Assembly (NCBI GenBank): GCA_045837725.1
Contig: JBEWZL010000216.1
Location: 434,001-489,670, forward strand
DNA: 55,670 bases
Origin: Vermamoeba vermiformis
Lineage: Eukaryota
Direction of reading: 5' to 3'
A program made the translations under genes and the position numbers. The notes below the pieces were generated by a model. It made no database searches, was not told the origin of the DNA, and was given only the letters and a program-made list of their open reading frames with translations. Below are positions 32,412 through 55,670 of the stretch, piece by piece (within the stretch, counting starts at the first letter, position 1; each line of letters opens with the position of its first letter).

Positions 32412-35400
32412 ATGGAGAAAACTACTACTTTTCCGGCTGGAGGCAAGGTTGAGTTGTTGAAATCTGTTGAAAACTTGCCCTACCGCAAGAGAATCGCAGC
32501 CGCAGCAAAACTCGGCCGAGACCACAAGAAAAACCCTCAATTGAAGACCTTGATCAATGAGCTTCGCACGGTAAATATATTGAATTCCAAAATCTGCTTT
32601 TTGTGGGTTGAATTGAATTGAATGAATGCCAACTATTCTTTATATGGTTTGCATGGGGCATATTAATTAATATTCTTGACCAGCATCCTGCTCCTCCTGC
32701 AGTTGAGCGAGAAGTCGAAGAAGGATTTAGCAATATGCTTTCGTCCCAACAACGTGATGTTGCCAAGTACTACAACGAAGACCAGATGGTACGAGCTATA
32801 CTATTTTGTGGCTACTTTGAATCGATTTACTAATTGTGTTCAGGCGTTGAATGCTGCTGTCGCTTCTCACGAGCACTTGGACGTTCTTAAAGACGAACTT
32901 ACTTCTCAATCTGTTTCGTTTAAGAAGCTTGTTATCAAGGAGGTTGTGCGTCAAGATAAATCCGACGACTTCATTCGGGGTCAGATCTTGACAGCTCCTC
33001 GTGCCGTTCGTAAGCAACTTATTGGCAAGTGCATCAAGTTCCGCCGCGTTGCTTTGCTTGAGTCGCTTATCCCCGAGATTCTCAAGCTTCACGGTGCTGA
33101 CGAAGTGGCCTCCTTTTTGCACGGCTGCAGCGACAAGGTTGTCAAGGAGCACCTCACTCAAGGTGACTTAATCCACAACAAAAACCTGAACTGGGCTCAC
33201 TTGGCTCGCTACCACGGTGCTTTGATTGTCTCTTTGATGGAAGCAGAGCTCTCCACTTCCTCCGTGTGGAATCGTGCTGGTGTATTTGAAAATTGGGAGG
33301 ACTTGTTGAGCAGTAAGTAGTTAATTTCAGTTGTTGATAACGTTATATTTATTGATTCGTTATTTAGAGAAGGGAATGTCCGAGCTTTTGTTTAACAGCA
33401 AGCAGACTCTTGCCCTTATTGCGCTGGTGCGCAAGTATACTCCTGCTCAGTTTGAAGCTTATAGCAATCACCGTACCGAGCCTAAAGACTTGGCATCGCA
33501 ACTCAAGCTCCCTGCGCAGTGCTTCATCTACTCAGTGCCTCGATTTATGAATACTTACCTCTCGCACTTCTTGAACCACAAGAGCACTTTGGTTCCGCTG
33601 ATTGACTTCCTAATCGAGCGAATTGATGACTCCCGAGGTTATTTGCGAGTGTGCATCCCTAATGGCATTTGGTATAAGCACGTTGCCGCTGATCAAGTCT
33701 TGCGCTTCATCAAGGCAGTATTCGCCAAGTCTACCCCGGCCACAAGGGCAGCCAAATATTCTTACGATGTTCAGCTTTTGCGCGACATTCAGCAATTTTC
33801 CTTGCGCCACTTCGGCATGGGCGAGCTACTTGACTTGGCAAAGACGTTGCACTCTGTCTACGAGAAGATCCAAATTGATAATGGAGATGCCCGTGTCAGC
33901 ATCTTCCACGTCCTCAACTTGTTCTACAGCGAGTTGAGCAACAGAGTGAAACGCGCTATGAAGACTGGCTTGAAGAACGACAAGGTGGCTAATCTCGACG
34001 TTATCATCAAGTCTTTCAACGACATTAACAACATTCTGATGCCTATTACTATTCCTCGTATTGAGGCAAAGGCTGTTGATGATACTCTGCTGAGCTCGTT
34101 GACCGATCTCTTCAGTGTTTGCCCTCCAGTGCCCGAGCTCTTGAAGTCTCTATTCGAACGTATTGGCAACCTCTTCGCGACTGAAGAAGCATATCCGTCA
34201 ACTCCCGCTCGTTTGGATGCTTATTCCTCAAGTGGTCGCGAGCGCGCAGAGCAGCTTTACACCAGACATCTGGACAACTTGCTGAAGCATCTCATAACAA
34301 CCCATCAAAAGGCGTCCAAGAACGAAAGACTCGACGAGAAGCAACGTGCTATCGCAGTAGAGCAGCAAGGTGCTCTTTTCAAGGCGATGTGGCATATTTT
34401 CACCCGAGATCCGATGGAAAACACTCAAAGAATCGCTAAATTCTACCCGTACATGTCCCTAGAGTTGCGAGAGTCTTTGTGGCGCGAGCATCTTGGCGCC
34501 CCTGAAGACCGATTGAAGATTTTGGCTGGTGAGCACTTTGAGCATATGATGCGACTGTTCAATTTGTTGCCCATCAAGGCCATTCAACCAACGGTCAAAG
34601 CTCTTCTTTCTGATGAAGCTGTTATGACTAAGCTTGCACGTGACAAATTGCTTGCTTACCAAGATATCGAAGATCACGACATTAGAAAGCAAATGCAAAA
34701 GGCTGCTGACTCGAAGAATCCTACCGAGCGCTTGGCTGCCATGAAAAGATTGGTTGTTGCCACGATCCTGTCTAAGTCCGCCGTGCAAGCCGGCAGAACT
34801 TTGAAGTACATTCGTGACAAGATCAAGAACGAGGCCATCGACCGAAGAAATGAGGTGTTGAACTGCTTGGTGTACTTCACTGGCCCCAAAGAAGCTCACG
34901 AATCCGTGTTGCAACGAGAGAAGAAAGAAGTCTACGCTAACTCTTTCTTGCGAGAAGATACTCCCGAAGAACAATTCGAGATGTGGCTCAAGTTATTGCA
35001 AGATTTGTTGGAAGCTCCTGATTTGAATCGCGTTAACACAGATGACTACTCCGCCATTGAGAATCACGCATCCTTCAAGCACTTCTGGCACTTGAGCAAG
35101 TGCGCTATTGCTCGAGGAAGCGAGTTCCCCATGACTGAGCAAGGAAATGCTCTTAGCAGTCGATTCCTTGCTTTCGCTTTCGAGATTCAATGGCGCATTG
35201 GCCTCTACATCCGTGGTGATCGCAAGGCTGTAGAGAAATTCAAATTGGCCACGCAGTTCGTCTCACCCACAACCTCGTTGCCCTATCCAGCTGTTAAAGT
35301 CGGACGCAGAGTGAAAAGTGCTGGTGTTAGCCACGACCCGTTCAAGCGACGCCCAGCATTTGCGAAAAGATTTGTCGAGACCATTGTCAACATCGCTCTG

Positions 35401-38400
35401 CCCAAGTTCAGAGAACGTTTCCCTCGCATGAAGGTCCACGAATTGGGCAACTTCTTCGCTCCCTTGTTCCAAGCTGCAAATGCTTACTGGAAAGATCTCC
35501 CTGTCCTTACCAGCTACTTGAATGATGCTTTGGAAAATTTGAAGAAAACCAGCAAGAAGGACGAGGAGGGTTTGTTGATCATTGAACACGACAATCCGAT
35601 CTTCAAGGTGTTTGAGCCTTTGCTCACCTTCAAGCGCCAAGAGCATTGGTCGAAGATTCCTGCTCTCAATGATTACGTCGAAACGATTCTTCACTCTCGT
35701 CAAGCACCTACCGTTCTCAAGCCGTGGATGTACCACCACGAGGTTTCGTTGACCAAGAAGGGAACCAAAGCTCAACGTGCTCAAAAGCGCGATGAAACTG
35801 TCACCAAGTTGCTTTCGATCAGCAAATCGGCATTGCACTTGAAGTTTGTCTGGCATCACTTGTTCGAGAATCGACAGGATCTTCTCGACAAGTACATTAA
35901 CGAAGCTGACCCCAAGACTTACCGCGGTGTGTTCTTTGTCAACCCTGACGATAGACCTTTGTACAAGAAGACTGAAGTCGAGAAGGTTGTTATTCAAGCA
36001 AAGGTTGGAGTCCGTCGAGTACGCGGAGCTGCTACGCCAGTCACGACAGTTATCAAGGGTACTGCAATGCAACAGGCAGTACACAATGTTCGCGAGGTTA
36101 TTGCCAAGCAAAACGATGCCGAAGACAAGATTAAGGATGAAATGTCTCTCAATGGCGATCACCGGGACTTCTACACCTTTGAGGCCTGCTACAAGCTGAA
36201 CAGATTGCTTCCCAGACAGTCACTGACTTTGGCTGCTCAATGGCTTCGTCAGTTGTTGAACGGCGATAGACCAATGCCCGAGCGCATCAAGGCCGCCATC
36301 AGATGGACTTTGTTGCCTACCACTGCTTACTACGATGTCGTCAAGTTCTTGAACGAGTACGAAAAAGAAGATGAAAAGACAAAGCGCCAAGCCTTGCCAG
36401 TCAACTTAATTGAGCCCGTTTTACGTGGTGCCATGTACAACGACGAGCCTAGTGCCGCTTTACGCTGGTTGTTGAGCCCTGAATTCCTTGGCTCTGAACG
36501 TGCTCGTGTTGCGATATACGCCGTTGCTCAGTGCGTGCCTCACTTGCCGGATGACGGCCTTACCAAGATCTGCCGAACTATTTTGACTGGAAAGAACCGC
36601 CATCAGCTCAAGGTTACGGCGTACAAGGAAATCATGCGCTTGTTAACTTCCTCACCAACTACTGAGAACATCGAGATGGTCTTGCACGAATGGAACCGTA
36701 AAGAACTCCACCGCGACGTTGCCATCACCATCATTCAATGTGCTTTTGCCTTCTTGAAGTCTCCGGACGAGAACAAGAATGCTCTCGGTTGGAAGATCCT
36801 TGAATTGACCTTCGAGAAGTATCCCAGCCACTCTGAAATTCTGACAACTTTGTTGGCCACCAAATCCACAAACGCAGAGCAGCATCTTAACGTGGCACCT
36901 GAATACAATGGACAAGAGATGCAACAGCCACGCGTAAAGGAACTCATGGACGATCTTGCCAAGCGCGAAATCCCCAAGAAGCACGTTGTGGACTACATTA
37001 ACAAGGTTATCAAGCGATTGGTTAACCTCGAAACTCTTGATGAAGATGACGATGTGAAGCACTTGGCTCGTGTTAGCTTGTTCTACTGGCGTGAACAGGA
37101 GGGCAAAGAAGGCGTTGAGTACTTCATCCAAAACGCTTTGAAGTTCTTGTCCAACTTCGGCTCTAAGCTCCTAAGAAGCACAAAGGTCGGCGATCAAAAG
37201 GTGTTCTATGCACGCTCGACAACAATGTGGAACTACTTGGCTACTTGCTGTGGTATTAACACCGCATCCAGCACCTACGTTCGTGGCAAAGGAAATGTCG
37301 AACGCACACTGGGAGACCGTGCCTCGTTCATCAAAGCTATCGAAAATTACACAGCGGAAATTGGCCGCTTATCTAAAACCAAGTGCACTGCCGAAGAAAG
37401 CCGCGTTCGTGTTATCTTATTGAACGTGTTCGATTCGGTTTTGACCGATGGAAAGATTTGGCCGACAACCGCCATCCAATCGGGCTTCTTCGATCGTCAG
37501 ACCGAGCTTAAATTGATTGCTCCAATCCAAAAGTAAGTTGCTTCTTTTAGTTCTTACATATACTTACGTTGAGTGCTAGGTTGGGTAACATGTACTGGCT
37601 CGAGACTACCAAGAGAATCTTGAGGGGTCTTCGTCAACAATCGCCCTCTGTTGTGGTTGGTCCTATTCGTGACGCCTTCACTTTCGTTCTTTCGCACCAA
37701 ACCTTCGTGTCGGAAATCGTCAGTGCAATCGGTGAATATGTCAGCACTTCGTACCACTATTGGCAATACAATGAACAGAACGACGTCCACCAAGTCTTGC
37801 GCGAGGTCTTCGCTCCTACTTTTGTCAACACTTCCAATCTCGGTCCTGAAGCCTCCGCTTTGTTGACGATGCTGCGCGTTAAAATGGTTTCCTACGCACC
37901 CAAGTTTGCCGAAGTTGGCGAGGAAAACCTGACGGTCGCTAATTTAATTTATGGCGGCATCAAGCAACTTGCCGAAGTTAAAGCCGTCCTCCCTCCTGAC
38001 TTCGACTTGTTCACCGAGATGCTCAACCTCTTTAACAAGATCTGCACCACGCTCAGCCCTAACGTCTGGAACGGCACTCGTACTTTCACTGCAGAAACTC
38101 AGCAGTTCGTGAAGACTGTGATCGATCAATGTCTGAGTGCTCCTGCAAGTGGCCGCGAGGGTGAACTCGCTCGTGAATTCATTACCCGCGCCTTGACACA
38201 ACACCCGGAGGACTTGGCTTTGACGTACCACGATGTTGCCGATCACAACAGATTGATGTACGCCGTGCTTTTGCACGCAGCTTCACGCGACTTGTCAGCC
38301 AGCACCTTGGAGTCTACCTCAAAGTGCATCGTCGGTTTGGTTAGCGACATCCACTTCTACGTGGACAAGGTGTTCAACAAAAACACTAGACAGCGAACCA

Positions 38401-45843: not shown

Positions 45844-46192
45844 ATGCTTCCAGTTTTGCCCACCGAAATTATAACAAACCAAATATTGCCTCTCACCCCG
45901 ACAGAGTCGCTCTTCGTGTCTCGTCACTACCACAATATTGCCCTGACCTTACTAGCACCAACAGATCCCTGTAAATTTTCTTGCCAATTAACAACATTCA
46001 TTCGTTTTAAGGCTGTGCGATCTGCCTCTGTGCTGCTCTCTCTTCTTGATAGATCCAAGCCTTTCCCACAATGACGCATTTCTTGCAGCAGTCCAGTCAA
46101 AAAATGAAGACCTACTGCGGCAACTCGTCGAACATCCGCGTTTTGATGTTAACAGCATGATACATCAAGACAATCGCCTATCTCAAACACCT
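45844..46192 (+). pseudogene. Truncated and frameshifted F-box-like + ankyrin-like gene
   Basis: LPVLPTEIITNQIL...FVSRHY is F-box-like. After a frameshift near 46048, DPSLSHNDAFLAAVQSKNEDLLRQLVEHPRFDVN is ankyrin-like. The sequence then runs directly into unrelated CpG-poor DNA. Confidence 0.55.
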
Positions 46193-47243
46193 TTAGAATG
46201 TCATATCTGTTTCAAAGTCCTTGTGTTGAACCTGAGCATTGCAATCAACCTGTATATTTGAAATGTGATCAACTGGCTGTTGGGAGTTGTGCTCTAGATG
46301 ATTTAAGCGTTCCATCATGGCCTGTTGTTGAGTCATTATAGTGGACAACATTTTTTGCAAGGAAGCACTGGAGTCCTCAGTAGGAGCAGTGCTTTGGGTT
46401 TTTGTGTGAATCTCTGGAATATTGGTGCTGGTTTCTATTGGGGTTGTGCTGTCAATGCTCACTGATGGCTTGCGTGGAGTAACTTTCTTTTGCTAAACAG
46501 GAATCTCATCAGAGCTACTATTTGAGTCCTCTACTGTCTTGTTAGTATTTGGGCAATGTTTTCGCAGAACCTTTCGCTTCTTCTTTGGAGTATCTTCACT
46601 GTGTGTAGTTGCCTGGCGCTTTCTGGCAGCAGAACGAGTTTCTACATGTGTAGGCTCTTTTGGAGGTTGACTTTGCTTTTGATGTTTGGCAGGTTTGCTA
46701 GCCTTGGGAGTAGGACCAGTTATTTTCTGTTCACACCATTTGTCGAACAGTTGATTAACATAGTGCTTTTCTTGCTCTGTCAAAATGCGATGTACTTTCT
46801 ATTGACAAGTGGTTAGAAACATGGTGATGTGATTGTAAACTTACTGTATACTCTTTCAAATGAAATTCCTTGATTGTTGCTGTCTTCAAGCAGCAAGCAA
46901 CAATGTACTTATTGTGGCCTTCAAATCCCCGCAATATTCCAACAACAATCCACTCTTCATTGTCGCACTTGATTATGTCATCAATGCAATAAGAGAGTAT
47001 GCCCTTGTGATCGAGTACCTCTTCGTACAGTGTTGAGTGGGCAAGGCAAATATCTTGTGAAGCATACCAAGTCAATCCATCAGCTTCAATTTGGATAGGG
47101 TGCTATAATAAACGGCGATATCAATTTGGATTTGATTACAGAAAAACTAAGTGAGAGCATTTGAACACTGATCGTTTGCATTAGCATACCTGATTTGTTT
47201 GCATGTCTGATTTGCCACTTGTTGCTGTGGTGCTCATGGGCAT
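46193..47243 (-). pseudogene. Three-exon CpG-depleted gene with an in-frame premature stop, possibly transposon cargo or accessory gene
   Basis: ATG at 47243. GT-AG introns near 47190-47103 and 46844-46799 join MPMSTT..NQ|HPIQIEADGLTWY..KEYT|KVHRILTEQEK. TAG at 46495-46493 is in frame with the downstream QKKVTPRK...MTF stop. Confidence 0.55.
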
Positions 47244-47649
47244 TGTGGTAGATCTGATCTGAAAAAAAACTCAATAAATTGGTGTTGCATAAACTCACAA
47301 ACGATTGATCTATTAAGAGTTATATGGTTCCCTGGGAAAAACACACTCTGTCGCTCTAATTCTGCCCTGCGCTAACCTCTTCAATGCCCTTTCTTTCACA
47401 CATTTAAAACTTGTGCTATCTCAGAAATATTTTATAAAATTCTCAGAGGATCAAGTGTTTTACGAATACATGTAAGATATTAATTGAACAGTAGGACGAA
47501 ACAAAGTCTGGTTGGTTCGATTTGGATGTGAAAGTAAAAAGTGCAGGAAAAGAAGTGAAAATATGTGGCAGTGCAGAATTATGGAGCAGCAAAAACATTT
47601 TATAGCGACAGGGCACACGTGTTTTTCCAATATAATATTGATATTATTA

Positions 47650-47679
47650 CAGTCGCGGCCAAAAGTATCGCCCCGTCAC
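47650..47679 (+). mobile_element. Possible solo Tc1/mariner-like terminal inverted repeat
   Basis: TA|CAGTCGCGGCCAAAAGTATC resembles the Tc1 end CAGTGCTGGCCAAAAAGATATCC and follows a TA. No partner end or transposase was found in the window. Confidence 0.3.
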
Positions 47680-48175
47680 TTGACGAGGGCCATTACCAGT
47701 TTTGAAGAGGTAGACTATGAAGATATCCTATTGAAAATATATGCCAGCTCTGATAGTATTTTTCATTATATTTGCATAGCTGGCAAACATTGGTGAAGGT
47801 TGTTTTGGTCAAACGAATGTTTCCGAGCCATAAAATCCGCGAAAAGCAGTTTTTGATTTTTAACTGCTTAGAGAGGAGTCCAATCAAACTGCTACTAATA
47901 CATATGGGTAGTACAAGTACCTTGTCAATTCAGAAAAATATGCTGAACACTGGAAGAGGTTAGGTCCTGGAGGAATAAATTGCCGCAAATTAATTCCATT
48001 TGCCGAACCCCATTTCCGCAGTTGTGCCGAAACTTTCGCAAGATTCATATATACTACAGGGCTTGGCCAAACAGGGCTAGCCCTAAAAATTATCCAAAAA
48101 GTTTTGTAAAGTCAACTTTTCTGGCAGTTTTTCAACCAAGAGTTCGACATTGAGCAATTGCACAAGTGTGAGCAA

Positions 48176-48485
48176 GAGTTGTAGAGTGCTAACGAGAGTT
48201 GCTGAGCACTAATGAGAGTCACTGAGTGCTAATGAGAGTCACCGCAAGCTAACAGGAGTCGCTGAGTAGCGAGAGTTGCTGAGCGCTAACAAGTCACCAA
48301 GTGCTAACGAGAGTTGCTGCACACTAATGGGAGTCGCCAAGCGCTAATGGGAGTCGCCGAGCGCTAACGAGAGTTGCCGAGCACTAGTGAGAGTCGCCAA
48401 GCACTAATGAGAGTCACAGAGCACTAACAAGACTAGCCGAGCACTAGCGAGAGTTGCCGAGCACTAACTAGAGTCGCCAAGAGTT
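48176..48485. repeat. 20-bp minisatellite, about 15 copies, consensus GAGTCGCCGAGCGCTAACGA
   Basis: Read directly. Example copies: GAGTCGCCGAGCGCTAACGA, GAGTTGCTGAGCACTAATGA, GAGTCGCCAAGCACTAATGA, GAGTCACTGAGTGCTAATGA. Confidence 0.92.
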
Positions 48486-48608
48486 AATTTGAGTTGAGGG
48501 CTGACAAGAGTAATTACACACCAGAGAGATTAAATGTTGAAAGAGTTTATTCATTTTACAATATAACAAGTTAGAATAAAACAACAACTGTACTGGTAAG
48601 GGCAAAAC

Positions 48609-49128
48609 TATGACCACAATGGTCACAACTGAAATTAAAGTCCTTTACAGTTGTCTCTAGCAGGAAATGATGTAAATTTAAGTCTTTCAAGGTTGTCTCC
48701 ACAGGGAGACGATGTAAAAAAAACAAAGTTTAAAACTTCGTGACCACAGTGGTCACGAGCTAAGAAAATTGATGTCACGTCATTGGAGGTCGTCTCCACG
48801 GGGAGACGATGTCTGAAAAAACTAAGTCCGATAGAGGTCGTCTCCACGAGGAGACGATGTCTAAAAAAACTAAGTCCTACAGAGGTCGTCTCCACAGGGA
48901 GACGATGTTAAAAAAAATTAAAGTCCTGCAAGGCCGATGTAACAAAAAAACTAAGTCCCACTTCGTGACCGCACTGGTCACGAACTAAGAAAAATTAAAG
49001 TCCCTTGAGGTCGTCTCCACAGGGAGACGATGTAAAAAAATTCAAAGTCCCTTGAGGTCGTCTCCACAGGGAGACGATGTAAAAAATTCAAACTCGAAAA
49101 ACTTCGTGACCGCACTGGTCACGAACTA
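48609..49128. repeat. Array of two palindromic hairpin repeats, A (7 copies) and B (4 copies), separated by A-tracts
   Basis: A is TCGTCTCC-ACRR-GGAGACGA, near 48691, 48787, 48834, 48883, 49007 and 49054, with a degenerate copy at 48650. B is TTCGTGACC-(ACAGT/GCACT)-GGTCACGA, near 48737, 48962 and 49103, with a degenerate copy at 48609. Confidence 0.92.
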
Positions 49129-50140
49129 CAACAAAAAACAATCAAAATAACTTACAATTTAGTGGGCAGGCGTGATCTATTGGAGCCATAACTCGTAACT
49201 AGTGACGACACGAGCGAGACTCGTAGTTACAATCATGCCGTCACTACTTGCGATGAGGCTCACTTAACTTACTAAGATTTTACAAGCAAATGGCAGAACG
49301 ATCCGCACTTGAAGCGTTGTCCAAAGACACCACGTTGCCAGAGCTACCTCGTCTTGTTACGAAGCACGACTGTAATTTAAGAATAAATATTATTATCTGT
49401 TGCTACCTTGCGGGTAAATAAAATTAATACGCGTTGTTGTGGTTGTGGTTGCAACGTAAAATAATGGTAACGAACCGAAAAGGAAATCTTGCCATTCAAC
49501 TGACAAATAAGATTTATTCTTTGGATTTTCTGCCGATATTTCCTGTCACGTGTGTGATTTCGCCGTTTGTGCGCAGGGTTCTGCGCTGCGCAGGGCTTAA
49601 CGACCGTTATTTTTGTCATCAAAACGCACCAAACAAGCACGAAAGACAGTTTCATATGTAACAGTGCTCGTGTTTGCACTGGCAATGGTCACCAATTATT
49701 TTACTTCAGCTGATCCAAATCAAAATTAAATCGTTTATCTTGCGCAAAGGTAGCTACCACGATTTCTCTGTAATTATGTTAGTCGCAGCGCACGAGACGG
49801 CATTGCTGTAGCTGCTCGCGTTGCTGATAATTTACCCTCCCGCCCAAATCTGATTTGAAATTTTTGAAAGTCACCGCAGGACATTAACGAATAACCTTTT
49901 TTTTGCTGTTGATTTGCGGGATTTTGACCACGAGTCGCCTTGTGGTGTAATTAATTTTGACAGTTAACACTCGTGCACAGGGTTTATCAAACAGAACGAA
50001 CGGTCTCTCGCGGAGATCGGAGTAAATCTGTTTTTGCAAAGAAATGATGTAATAAACTCAACCACAAAGTGAGGAATTATTTTTTCTTATTTATTTATTC
50101 TAGTTACAATATGCAAGTAACGCGTCACGCAACAGAAGAT

Positions 50141-50297
50141 GTTCAGCACGAGCTATTTTGGCTGTGGAATTGAAAATTAGATGTGAACTTAGATTCGCAT
50201 CAGATCGACCACAAGGGTCGAGTTATTATTATTGTTATTGTTATTATTGATAGTAAACACGCGCCCTGCGACAATCAGCGTCGTTGCAGCGCGAGAC
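50141..50297 (+). repeat. Leader repeat copy 1 (two conserved stem-loops)
   Basis: GTTCAGC..GAG, then AACTTAGATTCGCATCAGATCGACCACAAGGGTCGAGTTA (50186-50225), then CAGCGTCGTTGCAGCGCGAGAC. Confidence 0.9.
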
Positions 50298-51258
50298 AAT
50301 GAACGAGCAAGGATTGCACGAATCTCGGTGCCGAGACCGAGATAATTCAAGGTAATATTTCAAAATATATATAATTCCGTGTGTATAAATATTATATCTT
50401 AATTTCAAAATTTTAATTTTCTGTAAACTAAATTGGATTCGGATGCTCGTATTTTATCCGAATTTTCAAAAAATATCGTTTAGTTAATTGCTATACAATA
50501 CAACTAACAGGTAATTTTTATTACAGATTGCAATATCAATTTTGTGGCGATCGAATGTTATTTAATTTTGATCATTCCTGCGATCACCACCAATGGTCGC
50601 TAAGGGTTATTGAGCGCTATTACGCTCGTGCTTTGGTTGGTTCGCGTGGTGGTCACGGAGAGCTTTCTGGACTTGATGCCGAGACACCACCCCTGTACTT
50701 TGGTTGGTGCTAGTGGTCACAGAGCGCAGTACTTGATCCATGGCCGTGAACCGGATTGCGTTAGACGCATCATTATAGTTGGTAAGTTAGTTTTTAATAA
50801 TATCAATGAATAAGGCGCAAGGAACGCGTCACTTTAAAATTTACCATTACCCTGATACTTTACAATAAATTGTTATGCGGATCGAGCTTCGTGCTCGGGT
50901 AAAATTAAAATTGCTGTTGTTCATTTTATTAAAACAATATATTAACCCTTATTTAATAGGTTATTGGAACAACAGAACTAACACGCGAGTTCTAGATCGA
51001 GAGCGAAATCGATCGCTCGCTGACCGGTCAGTGAATGAAGCGTAAGTAGTTTAAGTATTTTATTTTATTGTTATTTAATATTTTAATTTATTTATGCTTT
51101 AGAAATTCACGATGACGGATCTCGAACGCGATCTTCCCGCGTTGACAACTTCAATACATTGATTGAAATATAGCACCGTAAGTATTCCTAGCGTTAATAT
51201 TGAGCAATATTAACGCGTTATGCAATCAGAAATGGCCCAGGCGTACACCGTGCTGTCC
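50141..51258 (+). ncRNA. Putative spliced non-coding unit 1 (leader + 4 introns, truncated by unit 2)
   Basis: Conserved leader at 50141-50297. Donors at 50352, 50782, 51042 and 51178 with acceptors at 50526, 50959, 51102 and 51229. No credible ORF. Transcription is inferred, not shown. Confidence 0.45.
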
Positions 51259-51398
51259 GTTCAGCGCGAGTTATTTGGATGAAAAGTAGAACTTGGATTC
51301 GCGTCAGATCGACCACAAGGGTCGAGCTATTTATTATTGATATTGTTATAGTTGATATTCAACACACGTCAAGCGATAATCCGCGTCGTTCCAGCGCG
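51259..51398 (+). repeat. Leader repeat copy 2
   Basis: AACTTGGATTCGCGTCAGATCGACCACAAGGGTCGAGCTA (51290-51329), then CCGCGTCGTTCCAGCGCG. Confidence 0.9.
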
Positions 51399-53020
51399 GC
51401 GTTAAGATCTCGCGATCACCTGCACCTAGGCCTTGGAATAGTGATTCGGTAAGTTTTTTTAAATATTAGTAAGTATATATATATATATATTAAAATAATT
51501 GTAGCAAATAGACAATTTCAACTTTTAAATGCAAGAAATTCGAAAATTGATTGTTTCCTAGGATCGAGCTTCGTACTCGAACCAAATTTAAATTTTCGGT
51601 TTTAGACATTTAAATATTCTATATTAATTACAATTATGCAGGTAATTTAAAACGAGTATCGGTTGCGGAGTTACTGGACTGACAATAGCCCAAGACAAAT
51701 ATACGGTAAGATAATCATACTATTACTTTAATGTTATTAAATGATCTAATGCGTTTATTTAAGTATTACAACTTCCTTGGCGATGGCTGATCGTTAACGT
51801 GATCTCGCTGAATAAAGTTCGGTCACACGAGTATTCGGCAAAAGGTAAGTACATCAATAATCAATGATAGTTATTAACTTTTATATTATTAGATTTAATT
51901 AAAACGATCTTTTTACGATGATTGAAAAGCGAGGTACGAGATCTTCGAAGTTTTGATGTAGCGCATAGAACGCTCTAACAGTAAGTATTCCCGTTTTGTA
52001 TCGTTATTACAGTTTGCTGATATTAATATTAACATTGAAAAATAGGTTGCAGTGGGCCTCGCGTCGTACACAGGATCCGACTTTTAAATTATAATTGCGC
52101 GCATCACTCGCGCTTAAAGTAAGTCAAATAGTGTTTTAAATTATTGCATTAAGGTACTAACGTCATTTATTTATTATTAGAGCCGTCTTGGATAAATTTG
52201 TAGATGGATTCGGTGACGAGATCTAGCGCGTTGAAATTTTTAAATGTGCGAACTGATGGATCGAGGTAAGGTAAAAAATCGTTTAACCTATCACGTAATA
52301 ACGTTGTTATAGCCCGATAAGGGTCAGTGTGACCTTTGAGTGCAACAATTCGGATCGACTGCCAGCGGATGTTAAAATTTCGCTGCTGATGGCTTTCAAA
52401 GTAAGTAAGATACAGTCAATAACGCACTTATTACTTATTTTAATATTCTTTTTTTGTTTAGATGGCCTGTTTACGTGACGTGGCTTGGCGTTATATCTCG
52501 GATCAACCCCGACAAAAGTACGGCTGCGAAATACGAATGTGAGTATATATATATATTGCATTACATAATATTTAGAATGTATTAAAATCGTTGTCAATAC
52601 AGAACATTATGGTGGAAGCGAAAGAATGGACACGAGGCACGCGTGATCTGATCGCGCTCAATATTTTATTGGTACGAAGAAAAGGCTGGTAAGTATTGAA
52701 AATAGATCATATTACATACGTACTAACGCGTTATATTATATAGTGGCTCAATCAGTTGACAGTGCGATGAAAAACGATCCGCAACTTGAGCGGATTGATT
52801 CGAGAACATACTTCCAGAGATTATGTAAGTTAATTTATTGGCTCATAATGATGATGTATTTATTAACATATGCTTATATAACCAGAGTCCATTCAATTTA
52901 CTTACTGAATCCTCGCGGATCGAGAATTAACTATTTTTAGAACGCGTCTAGACCTCACGCGAGCAATTTTCAATGTAATAGGTTCAGGCAATAATAAACG
53001 ACTTGTACACAATAAAAGTG
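51259..53020 (+). ncRNA. Putative spliced non-coding unit 2 (leader, 11 exons, 10 introns, polyA signals)
   Basis: GTAAG/GTGAG donors at 51449, 51706, 51845, 51981, 52119, 52266, 52401, 52539, 52689 and 52825. Each is followed by an AT-rich intron with a YTAAY-like branch point and an AG acceptor. AATAAA near 52993 and 53011. The spliced product has no long ORF. Confidence 0.55.
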
Positions 53021-53136
53021 CTCCCCATAAAGAGATCTCTCCGTTATTTTTAAATACTTTGACAGATCGACCAGAAAGGTCGAAATATTATTTAAAAAAT
53101 GTTAAAGCTGACGGTTTCGCACCGGTTTCAACAGCC

Positions 53137-53275
53137 GTTCAGCGAGTTATCTAGATGATAAGTTTATGTAACTTAGATTCGCATCAGATCGACCACAAGG
53201 GTCGAGTTACCGATAGTATTGTTGTTGTGGATAAGCACGCGCCAAACGACATTCAGCGTCGTTCCAGCGCGAGAC
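53137..53275 (+). repeat. Leader repeat copy 3
   Basis: AACTTAGATTCGCATCAGATCGACCACAAGGGTCGAGTTA (53170-53209), identical to copy 1, then CAGCGTCGTTCCAGCGCGAGAC. Confidence 0.9.
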
Positions 53276-55366
53276 TCAATTCAAGATCTTTTGATCCGAC
53301 ATCTTAGCTAGTACGGTCACAAATCAAAGGGTATGTATTTTTAATATTATGCATCGGTATAATATAACAATATTACACCATTAATTTCAATATTCAAATT
53401 GGTGTTAAAGTTTAAAAAAATTAAATTTACGGATCGAGCTTACTGCTCAAGCGAAAATCAAAAGTTTGTTATATTTATTATTAATACATTATTTTAATCG
53501 TAAATTTACAGCCCATTAATCGAAAGGCACTGGCGCACTCGATCAATATTAATAAACGTTCAGCAAATGATTGAGTTAGAATACACGGTAAGTAGTTAAT
53601 ATTATAACATCAATTCGCCGATTTAACTCGGTTTATTTAGGTCTAGAAATCCATCGAGCACGAATCTCAAGCGCGATCTTCACGCGAATAGAATATCGCT
53701 TGGTAGTGTAAGTTTTTTATTTTACTGATACAAGCCGCTTAATATTAGTGTATTATTAGTATAGGCAGCGTCTAATCGAACTTACAGCGGAGAATAATTT
53801 AAACAAAAGTACTTCACGGATATCCGCGATCTCCCAGTATTGTGCGCGTTAAATATCATTTGTAGTAACGCTGTATGGAACGGCAAGTAACTAATTCAAT
53901 GGTAGATGGATCTTAATAACGCTTTATTTGTCAGATCCTATCAAAACCCTTCTATGGCGAGACTTTACGCGGAACGATCCAGCGAGATCGGATTCGAAAA
54001 AATTGAATGGGCTTGTTCAAAGGCGACTCAAGGTAAGCAAATATCGTTTAATATTAACCTTAATATAATATTTCATGCTAATTTTAATTACAGAACTTCG
54101 CTGATGCGATCACGGATCTGGCCGATCTGACCCGCGAGGAAATAACAGTCAGATCGCCAACAAACTCTCGCAGGTAAGCATATCATTATTGTATTGATGA
54201 ATACTAACGCTTTATATTATAATTAGAAATGAGTGAAGGGGTTATTTACGAGAACAGACAAGGATCAAGCACCACCGCTCGAAGACAAATTTTCAACTAG
54301 TTGCGCTTTGATCGGTGCGATACTTGTATTAAGATTAATATATTTATAATGACGTACTAACGTTATTATTAATATTAGTGGAGACGTGCTTGGATATTTA
54401 CATCGACGCGATCTCCATTAAAACGCGAGTTCGAAAACATTTTCCGTGAGCGCATCAATTGCACCAAAGTAAGTAGCATCACTATAAAATTCGTGTATGC
54501 ATTATAATAATATTAATTTATTTACAGAAAACATTGTAGTGTGGACTTAATGCATTAGTGACGCGCGATCTGGCAGCGTGAAAACTTTCAGGCGAACGCG
54601 AGACTAAGGTAAGTGTATCGGTACATTAGTAATGACGGATACTAACCCTTTCATTAGTGAGTGCTCACAGGCGTTGGTTATTTTTGGATGCGTAGCCACG
54701 AATCCAACGATCTGAACACCACAACCAAGTAAGTGCAATTAATTTAATTATAAATTATTATAGTTCAGTTGTTAAATTCATACTTTTGCTCATATTTTAT
54801 TAAGTGTTGGATTCGGATCGATATGTTCTTGTGCGGTAGCCCCGTAAGTACAATCATTTACGCCGAGACTATTACTAATGGATTATTAATAGGTAAAAAA
54901 CTGCTCGCGACAAAGATTCAATGACTCAAAGATGATACAAATCGCAAGGTTAGCGGATGTTCTCGCACGCATCCAGGTAAACACAATACAGCGCATCGAT
55001 TGCACTAAAAGTATGTAACTATCATTTAATATAATAATTATAACGTATTAATGTTTTTAGACTAAGCAGTTGCGTTTTTCAGATCGCGGAACGCAAGATC
55101 TGCCACGAGGAAATTTTGAGATATATTGCGATTGTAAGCAGTGTAAGTTATTATATATAATATAATATCTATTGGCTAATCACTATAAAATTCGTTTATG
55201 TACTATACTAAGATTATTTATATCAACAGAAAAATAGTCAGTGCGGACTTGGTAGAACTGTGCGGCGCAATATATAGTAGCTGGCAGCGGTGAAAACTTG
55301 CAGTCTAACTCGACTGGCTAAGGTAAGTGCATCGTTACATTAATCACGGATACTAACCCCTTCATT
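53137..55366 (+). ncRNA. Putative spliced non-coding unit 3 (leader + 14 introns, the last one truncated)
   Basis: Donors at 53331, 53588, 53708, 53883 (GC), 54033, 54174, 54315 (weak), 54469, 54609, 54729, 54844, 55011, 55143 and 55323. Several introns contain TACTAAC. No long spliced ORF. Confidence 0.55.
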
Positions 55367-55618
55367 TGTGTCGAGTGCTGCGACGATAATGTCCGTGAAC
55401 AAGAAGCAGTAGCGCATCTTGGCACGCACCTTGCTGGCATCGAAGGTGGCAAGGGAGCTCATGCCGTCAATCTCCAACAAGCGCCCTTGACGCACGTAAC
55501 GGCGATGCGGCACTGCAAAGTTGTAGTTGGGATCGAGACCCGACAGCTTGCCCCAGATGAGCAGCGTGTTGTTCAAGTTCTCGGCCTAGCGCTTCTTTTC
55601 ATTCACGTATTCAACCGT
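55367..55618 (-). pseudogene. Isolated RhoGEF (DH end + PH start) coding fragment with an in-frame stop
   Basis: VEYVNEKKR*AENLNNTLLIWGKL...PHRRYVRQGRL...MRYCFLFTDIIVAA is a typical DH-PH junction. It carries an internal TAG and has no splice site at either end. Confidence 0.7.
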
Positions 55619-55670
55619 AACAGGCATGGTTATTTTTGGAACCGGCCAGAGTTTAGTCGCGCAATTAATA

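Follow-up and report, generated by a model that had tools for sequence, protein, structure and literature searches.

Among the closest described counterparts of the system considered here is the symmetric methylation of ApT sites in linker DNA to N6-methyladenine (6mA) by AMT1 (MTA1), which is reported from ciliates, Chlamydomonas, early-diverging fungi and other protists and which works alike (PMC12695648, PMC7145601, PMC5714169, PMC6245762). Algae in which DNMT5 methylates CG in a genome-wide, linker-confined lattice of a compact unicellular genome also work alike (PMC9246332), and traits are shared with Paramecium, in which the pitch is very short and exon sizes are tied to nucleosome size (PMC8997360), and with telomeric repeat-containing RNA (TERRA) and other subtelomeric non-coding transcripts (PMC7374410). 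Here we describe a 141-bp sequence lattice in the genome of Vermamoeba vermiformis, together with a family of tandem non-coding units that carry it. The window that we analysed is the terminal 55.7 kb (55,670 bp) of contig C216 in an assembly of 43.3 Mb and 309 contigs, whose genes have short GT-AG introns. Relatives of the PRP28 protein encoded in the genome reach no more than 65% identity, with Balamuthia (61%) the best among named protists. An original prediction had flagged its positions 51706-54729 for splice donors and exon-central GATC sites recurring about every 140 bp; this flagged stretch consists of units 2 and 3 of three head-to-tail units, whose membership in a multi-copy subtelomeric non-coding family the prediction had overlooked.

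The V. vermiformis genome resembles the AMT1 systems in that AMT1 occurs together with an AMT2/5-like ZZ-finger gene; it also appears to resemble them in that TAT is disfavoured and the pattern is strongest near gene starts, is missing from CpG-poor, repeat-like DNA and lies in putative antiphase to nucleosomes. It differs from them in that the pattern can be seen in the sequence itself, down to synonymous codons, is centred on GATC and runs across gene bodies, and in its pitch of 141 bp versus about 200 bp in Tetrahymena. It is a candidate member of the AMT1-type linker 6mA systems. With the DNMT5 algae it shares a genome-wide, putatively linker-confined lattice in a compact unicellular genome; unlike in the algae, CG is not the dominant periodic word and the candidate mark is 6mA. 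CG-rich linkers in DNMT5 algae were reportedly described by Huff and Zilberman in 2014. The pitch is, as in Paramecium, very short, with exon sizes apparently tied to it; however, it is 10 bp shorter here, linker-histone matches are present and ordinary introns are unphased. Moreover, Paramecium introns lie at nucleosome edges (PMC8997360), whereas the introns of the family lie on the putative core. The family is like TERRA in being subtelomeric, telomere-pointing, CpG-rich, multi-copy, non-coding and recombining. Unlike TERRA, it consists of head-to-tail units of presumed transcripts that have an intron every 141 bp and poly(A)-like ends of their own, and at the three loci that extend to TTAGGG arrays the units end 0.6-2.4 kb before the array. 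In the literature searched, outside of which most subscription papers lie, we found no description of a GATC lattice encoded in sequence, of a 141-bp repeat or of such a subtelomeric family.

A 141-bp lattice in the genome sequence

All 17 GATC positions listed for the flagged stretch are correct, with CG within 3 nt at 16 of them, and the donor spacings of unit 2 are as listed (mean 139.9, standard deviation (SD) 5.5 bp), the introns of the stretch being predictions from splice signals and conservation. A null model assembled from ordinary exons of at most 125 nt and short introns has the same mean (141.1 bp) but a much larger SD (29; P(SD ≤ 5.5) = 7e-5), so that the tightness of the unit-2 spacing is diagnostic and its mean alone is not; where ordinary predicted genes have three donor spacings in a row, these never all fall within 125-157 bp (0 of 682 runs). 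The phasing of GATC does not depend on choosing one site per exon, since it survives with the 15 unselected sites of unit 2 (R 0.62 at 143 bp) and with all 15 of unit 3 (R 0.64 at 149 bp), the latter unit being less regular, as had been said. GATC density is 12.2/kb in the flagged stretch versus 5.9/kb in controls, and the observed/expected ratio of CpG is 1.75 in the element, 1.16 in controls and 0.53 in the adjoining stretch. The four element windows have a high lattice power (12.8-23.5), which is reached in controls as well (median 6.2, 99th percentile 23.1, maximum 33.8). A compensation between exon and intron lengths is not clear (r -0.26 with the upstream and +0.11 with the downstream intron), and it stays ambiguous because misplaced acceptors alone could produce a negative upstream correlation.

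The control DNA comprised 600 kb taken from the middle of three other contigs. In this ordinary mid-contig DNA, no tetramer is more over-represented than GATC (observed/expected 1.47), whose autocorrelation has maxima near 140, 280, 420 and 560 bp. The period of the lattice is 141 bp (bootstrap 95% confidence interval (CI) 140-142), and an unbiased scan of all tetramers ranked ATAT, TATA, AATA, ATTA and GATC at the top, all at 141-141.5 bp, with periodic amplitudes of 0.26 for GATC and 0.54 for TATA against at most 0.036 for random positions. Of 30 chunks of 20 kb, 26 peak at 135-148 bp for GATC, 29 for TATA/ATAT and all 30 for their cross-correlation. TATA/ATAT is in exact antiphase to GATC, at an offset of 70.5 bp, and A/T tracts, CCGG and CG are in phase with GATC, the A/T tracts being maximal 15 bp on both sides of it. 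AATT and AAAT showed no periodicity in the tetramer scan of the control DNA, which argues that the lattice is not plain AT content. The leading periodic words are GATC and TAT/ATA, with CG in a minor, accompanying role (amplitude 0.065 versus 0.31-0.44, relative to GATC). The ordinary genes of the window (1-45600) carry a weaker lattice, with a GATC versus TATA/ATAT antiphase amplitude of 0.19 at 140.5 bp, and in CpG-poor control windows (n=12) the lattice is at background (1.6 versus 6.5), the flank windows being less clear (4.1 versus 5.1).

Within genes, for which we used the 196 best-scoring of 240 models (1304 introns) from our own gene finder, the lattice is present in 151 coding exons of at least 400 nt (0.157 ± 0.028) and is abolished there by synonymous shuffling. 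From one exon to another it follows distance along the genome (+0.18) and is absent when distance is measured along the mRNA (-0.03). With codon phase estimated solely from motifs more than 45 bp away, the use of GAT for Asp before C is 0.87 in GATC phase versus 0.56 in TATA phase and that of ATC for Ile after G is 0.67 versus 0.33, while Tyr TAT (0.28 versus 0.52) and Ile ATA (0.09 versus 0.23) shift the other way; the control codons of Phe, Cys and Glu showed no phase dependence. Ordinary introns of short length take no particular phase (R 0.04, n=402) and adopt the words of the phase in which they lie, with 0.81 versus 0.09 GATC per intron. A lattice that follows genomic distance, lies inside exons and is written in synonymous codons is not a splicing constraint, and the spliceosome-spacing alternative that the prediction had named is therefore rejected as its cause, since coding exons, which contain no intron, still have the lattice and ordinary introns take no phase. 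Its amplitude declines from 0.74-0.81 in the first 700 bp past the ATG to 0.33 at 2-4 kb. An assembly artefact was ruled out, as the lattice sits in synonymous codons and is kept between paralogs.

We consider it very probable that the lattice is an imprint of chromatin. What had been predicted, a sequence-encoded lattice on the scale of chromatin tied to 6mA at ApT, has thus gained strong support as to the lattice, and AMT1 is present; however, the lattice is genome-wide and not local, and 6mA and nucleosome phasing stay at the level of prediction.

Linker methylation and the short pitch

The 10.4-bp AAA/TTT signal, which wrapped DNA is expected to show, is confined to the TATA phase both in non-coding DNA (0.093, CI 0.063-0.131, versus -0.029) and in coding DNA (0.120, CI 0.061-0.173); for the introns and exons of the element it is 0.36 and -0.02, values given without an error estimate. 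Together with the A/T tracts beside GATC, this signal points to GATC as the putative linker. The main H3, H2A, H2B and H2A.Z sequences look standard and there are three linker-histone matches, so that the non-canonical particles suggested earlier are unsupported by the histones inspected; variant histones as the cause of the short pitch were not seen in the main H3, H2A and H2B. The genome also holds many divergent histone H3-like genes (on C264, C267, C251, C302 and C45 (L130), and at L139-L143), five copies of which, with near-identical scores, lie within 16 kb of contig starts.

A gene for AMT1 with the DPPW motif is present on contig C36, one exon of which matches Tetrahymena MTA1 (MT-A70) structures with an E-value of 5e-24 and METTL3 with 3e-6, and contig C13 carries an MT-A70 gene with a ZZ finger, which is AMT2/5-like by PMC12695648. 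METTL3 and METTL14 are absent among the four MT-A70 candidates (contigs C13 and C36), which may be a true loss or a limit of the search. According to PMC12695648, AMT1 prefers SATS/VATB contexts most and TAT least, and PMC11258239 likewise gives VATB. In our data, all seven ApT contexts that include TAT or ATA avoid the GATC phase (amplitude ≤ -0.45), while all nine VATB contexts have amplitudes of at least -0.13; as far as sequence can tell, this split of the lattice phases mirrors the preference of AMT1. In vitro, nucleosomes are disfavoured where a single GATC is methylated (PMC6245762), and loss of AMT1 in Tetrahymena weakens nucleosome positioning (PMC7145601). There are also seven C5-methylase matches of unspecified type on four contigs. 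We regard AMT1 as the probable writer, with presumptively methylated GATC in the linkers.

On these grounds we lean, with somewhat less assurance, towards an explanation in two layers, an AMT1/6mA linker imprint at a 141-bp pitch and, superimposed on it, a subtelomeric spliced non-coding family. In active chromatin, nucleosomes would lie in regular arrays that take their phase from gene starts and have a pitch near 141 bp, and AMT1 would methylate ApT in the short exposed gaps between the particles. Over evolution GATC, in the form C-R-GATC-Y-G, would build up at linkers together with flanking A/T tracts and CG, while the poorly methylated TAT/ATA would be removed from linkers and gather in the wrapped part; the fixation of GATC and A-tracts may have come about by long-term selection or by biased mutation. 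As methylated GATC and A-tracts would resist wrapping, sequence and mark may reinforce one another. The pitch would imply standard octamers with partly unwrapped DNA ends. That the true nucleosome repeat length is near 141 bp, as the pitch of the sequence suggests, has in our judgement only a slight edge. In Chlamydomonas, 6mA reportedly repeats at 130-140 bp near the transcription start site (TSS), which, if right, would make the short pitch less novel.

Several points weigh against this explanation. A nucleosome core comprises 147 bp, more than the pitch. The pitch is also below the 151-bp repeat of Paramecium, which PMC8997360 counts among the smallest described, despite standard-looking histones and linker-histone matches. 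Introns on the nucleosome core would be the reverse of the usual exon-nucleosome picture. In PMC12695648, 6mA has no substantial effect on base composition in the species covered, save for a depletion of TAT in fungi, and is found mostly past the TSS, whereas the present lattice crosses gene bodies. AMT6/7 are absent among the four MT-A70 matches, which include AMT1 and the ZZ-finger AMT2/5-like gene, although divergent members are easily missed. The gene models are home-made, phasing from the ATG is weak (R 0.18, n=138), and the cassette copies of the family are related, so its statistics are not independent.

A further difficulty bears on the writer itself. Among the SATS contexts only GATC is strongly enriched (0.87), with GATG/CATC at 0.15 and CATG at -0.10, so that a generic preference of AMT1 falls short as an explanation, and the strongest words give a palindromic 8-bp consensus, C-R-GATC-Y-G. 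Both would suit an imprint of nucleosome pitch whose writer is not AMT1 but a GATC-specific DNA-binding protein, a remodeler cue, another methyltransferase or a linker-versus-core bias of mutation or repair, perhaps even with the phases swapped and GATC at the dyad. Across genes, in addition, the lattice weakens as codon bias increases (rho -0.23, n=190), which fits a weak force, and an orphan candidate does exist on contig C98 (L148:1098-2601, - strand), namely an intron-containing gene similar to N6/N4 DNA methyltransferases, whose relatives are mostly unnamed or bacterial. However, the motif IV of its protein is atypical (TSLPD), Dam-type D12, phage Dam and DpnI have no match above cut-off in the genome, and the TAT/ATA split tracks the preference of AMT1; as to swapped phases, GATC has A-tracts on either side and lacks the 10.4-bp signal. 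We thus hold a writer other than AMT1 to be unlikely, albeit the strongest of the alternatives.

If the AMT1 linker explanation is true, the genome sequence of the eukaryote V. vermiformis would by itself disclose its map of 6mA and nucleosomes, which would run counter to the recent cross-eukaryote conclusion (PMC12695648) that 6mA leaves little compositional trace. It would make testable whether 6mA instructs nucleosome positions and where the lower limit of the nucleosome repeat lies, 141 bp being predicted here and 151 bp being the shortest that we found (PMC8997360). The same autocorrelation test could screen other protist assemblies.

The tandem non-coding family

A unit of the family opens with header repeats and a first exon; long first introns and a chain of cassettes follow, and a terminal exon that has AATAAA often closes it. 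The header has at least 49 genome matches (40 of 68 candidates scored), and its 18-nt core has 132 with at most one mismatch, on at least 42 contigs among the matches listed, as compared with 0 in the control. All 31 loci whose distance to the contig end is known lie within 36 kb of it, with 26 of the 31 pointing outward, and TTAGGG arrays follow the last cassette at 3 of 15 contig ends examined; the subtelomeric position is accordingly established for these three loci and presumed for the rest. Two further arrangements were noted: at L038 (C258:16611-17825) two family arrays stand back to back and diverge, and L045 and L046 (C110 and C11) are near-identical, inward-pointing copies.

The cassettes follow the lattice closely. 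In a non-redundant set of 236 with exons of 45-125 nt, chosen from 284, exons measure 85.1 ± 13.3 nt, introns 56.1 ± 6.1 nt (25% GC) and donor spacings 141.1 ± 13.1 bp. GATC occurs in 208 of the 236 exons, as against 100 after shuffling (maximum 115), lying within 20 nt of the exon centre in 196, while only 17 GATCs fall in the 236 introns. Donor spacings of 125-157 bp make up 225 of 362 in the family versus 112 of 1018 in ordinary genes, the former count excluding 6 of 34 rows (one near-duplicate and five ragged loci; 237 of 412 with all rows). The phase of spacings above 200 bp was left unused, being confounded by truncation and shared ancestry.

Between paralogs of 70-80% identity, with classes assigned from the query only, divergence is 2.7% at the donor GT, 7% at the next four bases and 8% at the acceptor AG, compared with 26% in intron interiors and 23% in exons. 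Of 536 cases of GATC, 454 (85%) are retained, whereas the rate is 43% for the remaining exon 4-mers. As splice sites and GATC are kept and exon content is not, spliced transcription together with a chromatin state may be the function, and the family would offer a natural example of conserved splicing and a conserved DNA motif alongside RNA content that is not conserved.

These data also bear on whether the flagged pitch could be the mere trace of a tandem, satellite-like duplication of a few ancestral cassettes with no tie to the lattice. Cassette families do recur in shuffled, mosaic order within and between loci, the mean spacing is expected from short exons and short introns alone, and both length compensation and long-range locking are weak, the latter reaching p 0.006-0.03 for 2-5 steps and no significance for 6-7, in related copies. 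However, the intron-free header repeats, one to four per unit, share the mean pitch (140.1 bp, n=60, range 47-194), GATC is selectively kept, family introns sit on the TATA phase while ordinary introns sit on any, and the 284 exons form 120 similarity clusters, not one, without a tandem array over the cassettes. We consider such an origin of the pitch improbable. Satellite DNA as such was ruled out, there being no single monomer and no array of that kind.

Weakest of all, and very improbable, is the reading of the units as protein-coding genes, decayed or small, or as structured-RNA hosts, with a pitch set by the smallest exon that splicing allows, since, for all their gene-like anatomy with strong splice sites and AATAAA and an excess of G-U over A-C pairs in header hairpins on the sense strand (67 versus 34), the longest frames in 25 spliced runs (52-133 aa) are like those of shuffles (62-105), exon lengths are uniform modulo 3, only 107 of 614 indels are multiples of 3, exon folding is near background (z -0.7), no Rfam match was found in the window, as a snoRNA host would be expected to have, and 76 of 1018 ordinary internal exons are shorter than 60 nt, so that 85 nt is not minimal. 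The units show neither the open frame nor the frame-preserving evolution of a protein-coding gene or pseudogene family.

In the two-layer explanation, the family would consist of spliced non-coding Pol II units (header or promoter, cassettes, poly(A) exon) that grow and shuffle by ectopic recombination in whole-period steps, with one AT-rich intron per nucleosome and one GATC-centred exon spanning each linker; being free of codon constraints, they would show the lattice in pure form. Their job, neither a protein nor a structured RNA, may be to maintain by spliced transcription an open, 6mA-marked, CpG-unmethylated domain at the chromosome end, either as a barrier, for example against telomeric and transposon silencing, or in a TERRA-like manner. 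A barrier-type role is a tentative suggestion, for which we would not claim an even chance. The full combination of standard nucleosomes at a 141-bp repeat, a methylated-GATC lattice reshaping codons, and subtelomeric barriers built from 'lattice genes' with one intron per nucleosome is more doubtful still.

Positions and surroundings of the units

All three units lie on the + strand. Unit 1 (50186-51289), for which no coding gene is predicted, has a header, long first introns and few cassettes; in its header core (50203-50220), promoter-like by position, a GATC overlaps a GACC-N5-GGTC palindrome. Unit 2 (51290-53040), whose paralogs have 69-93% identity, comprises a header with a core of the same GATC and GACC-N5-GGTC form (51307-51324), a first exon, a long first intron, nine short introns at a pitch of about 140 bp and a terminal exon. 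The long first intron contains a conserved, GATC-led short hairpin motif at 51561-51594, which is also found at 50879-50912 and 53431-53464. The nine short introns are predicted GT-AG introns, each starting at its donor, of which introns 1-5 lie at 51706-51763, 51845-51892, 51981-52045, 52119-52180 and 52266-52312 and introns 6-9 at 52401-52461, 52539-52602, 52689-52743 and 52825-52885; they are 47-65 nt long, rich in TAT/ATA and on the putative nucleosome-core phase. The exon-central GATCs, putative linker 6mA sites, are at 51801, 51940, 52074, 52220, 52353, 52501, 52645, 52776 and 52918 (range 51801-52921), and the terminal exon (52886-53030) has AATAAA, a putative poly(A) signal, at 52993 and 53011.

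Unit 3 (53050-55372), of which paralogs exist, has a double header with two cores (53065 and 53187, within 53065-53204) 122 bp apart, followed by a chain of cassettes that is cut off by a captured gene fragment. Its predicted introns (53588-55212) have clear donors at 53588, 53708, 54033, 54174, 54469, 54609, 54729, 54844, 55011 and 55143, with two further weak calls near 53842 and 54315, and its exon-central GATC sites span 53675-54712 at a mean spacing of 147.7 bp. The fragment (55343-55670, - strand) is coding-gene sequence in opposite orientation with a weak PH-domain match (E 0.09), and a coding-like fragment likewise follows the element on contig C252.

Upstream of the units, positions 48156-49135 contain tandem arrays of a 20-bp repeat and of 42-48-bp palindromic repeats, and one of these palindromes has the header's GACC-N5-GGTC form; elsewhere, too, family loci are preceded by palindromic arrays of a similar kind (L004, L006). 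The adjoining stretch at 46000-48000 is CpG-depleted (observed/expected 0.53), with fragmentary open reading frames (ORFs), no lattice and no Pfam match above cut-off, and looks like a methylated, decayed repeat. Further into the window, a large gene has a very long single exon at 33368-37532 (ORF of 1403 aa from stop to stop), in which the lattice is weak.

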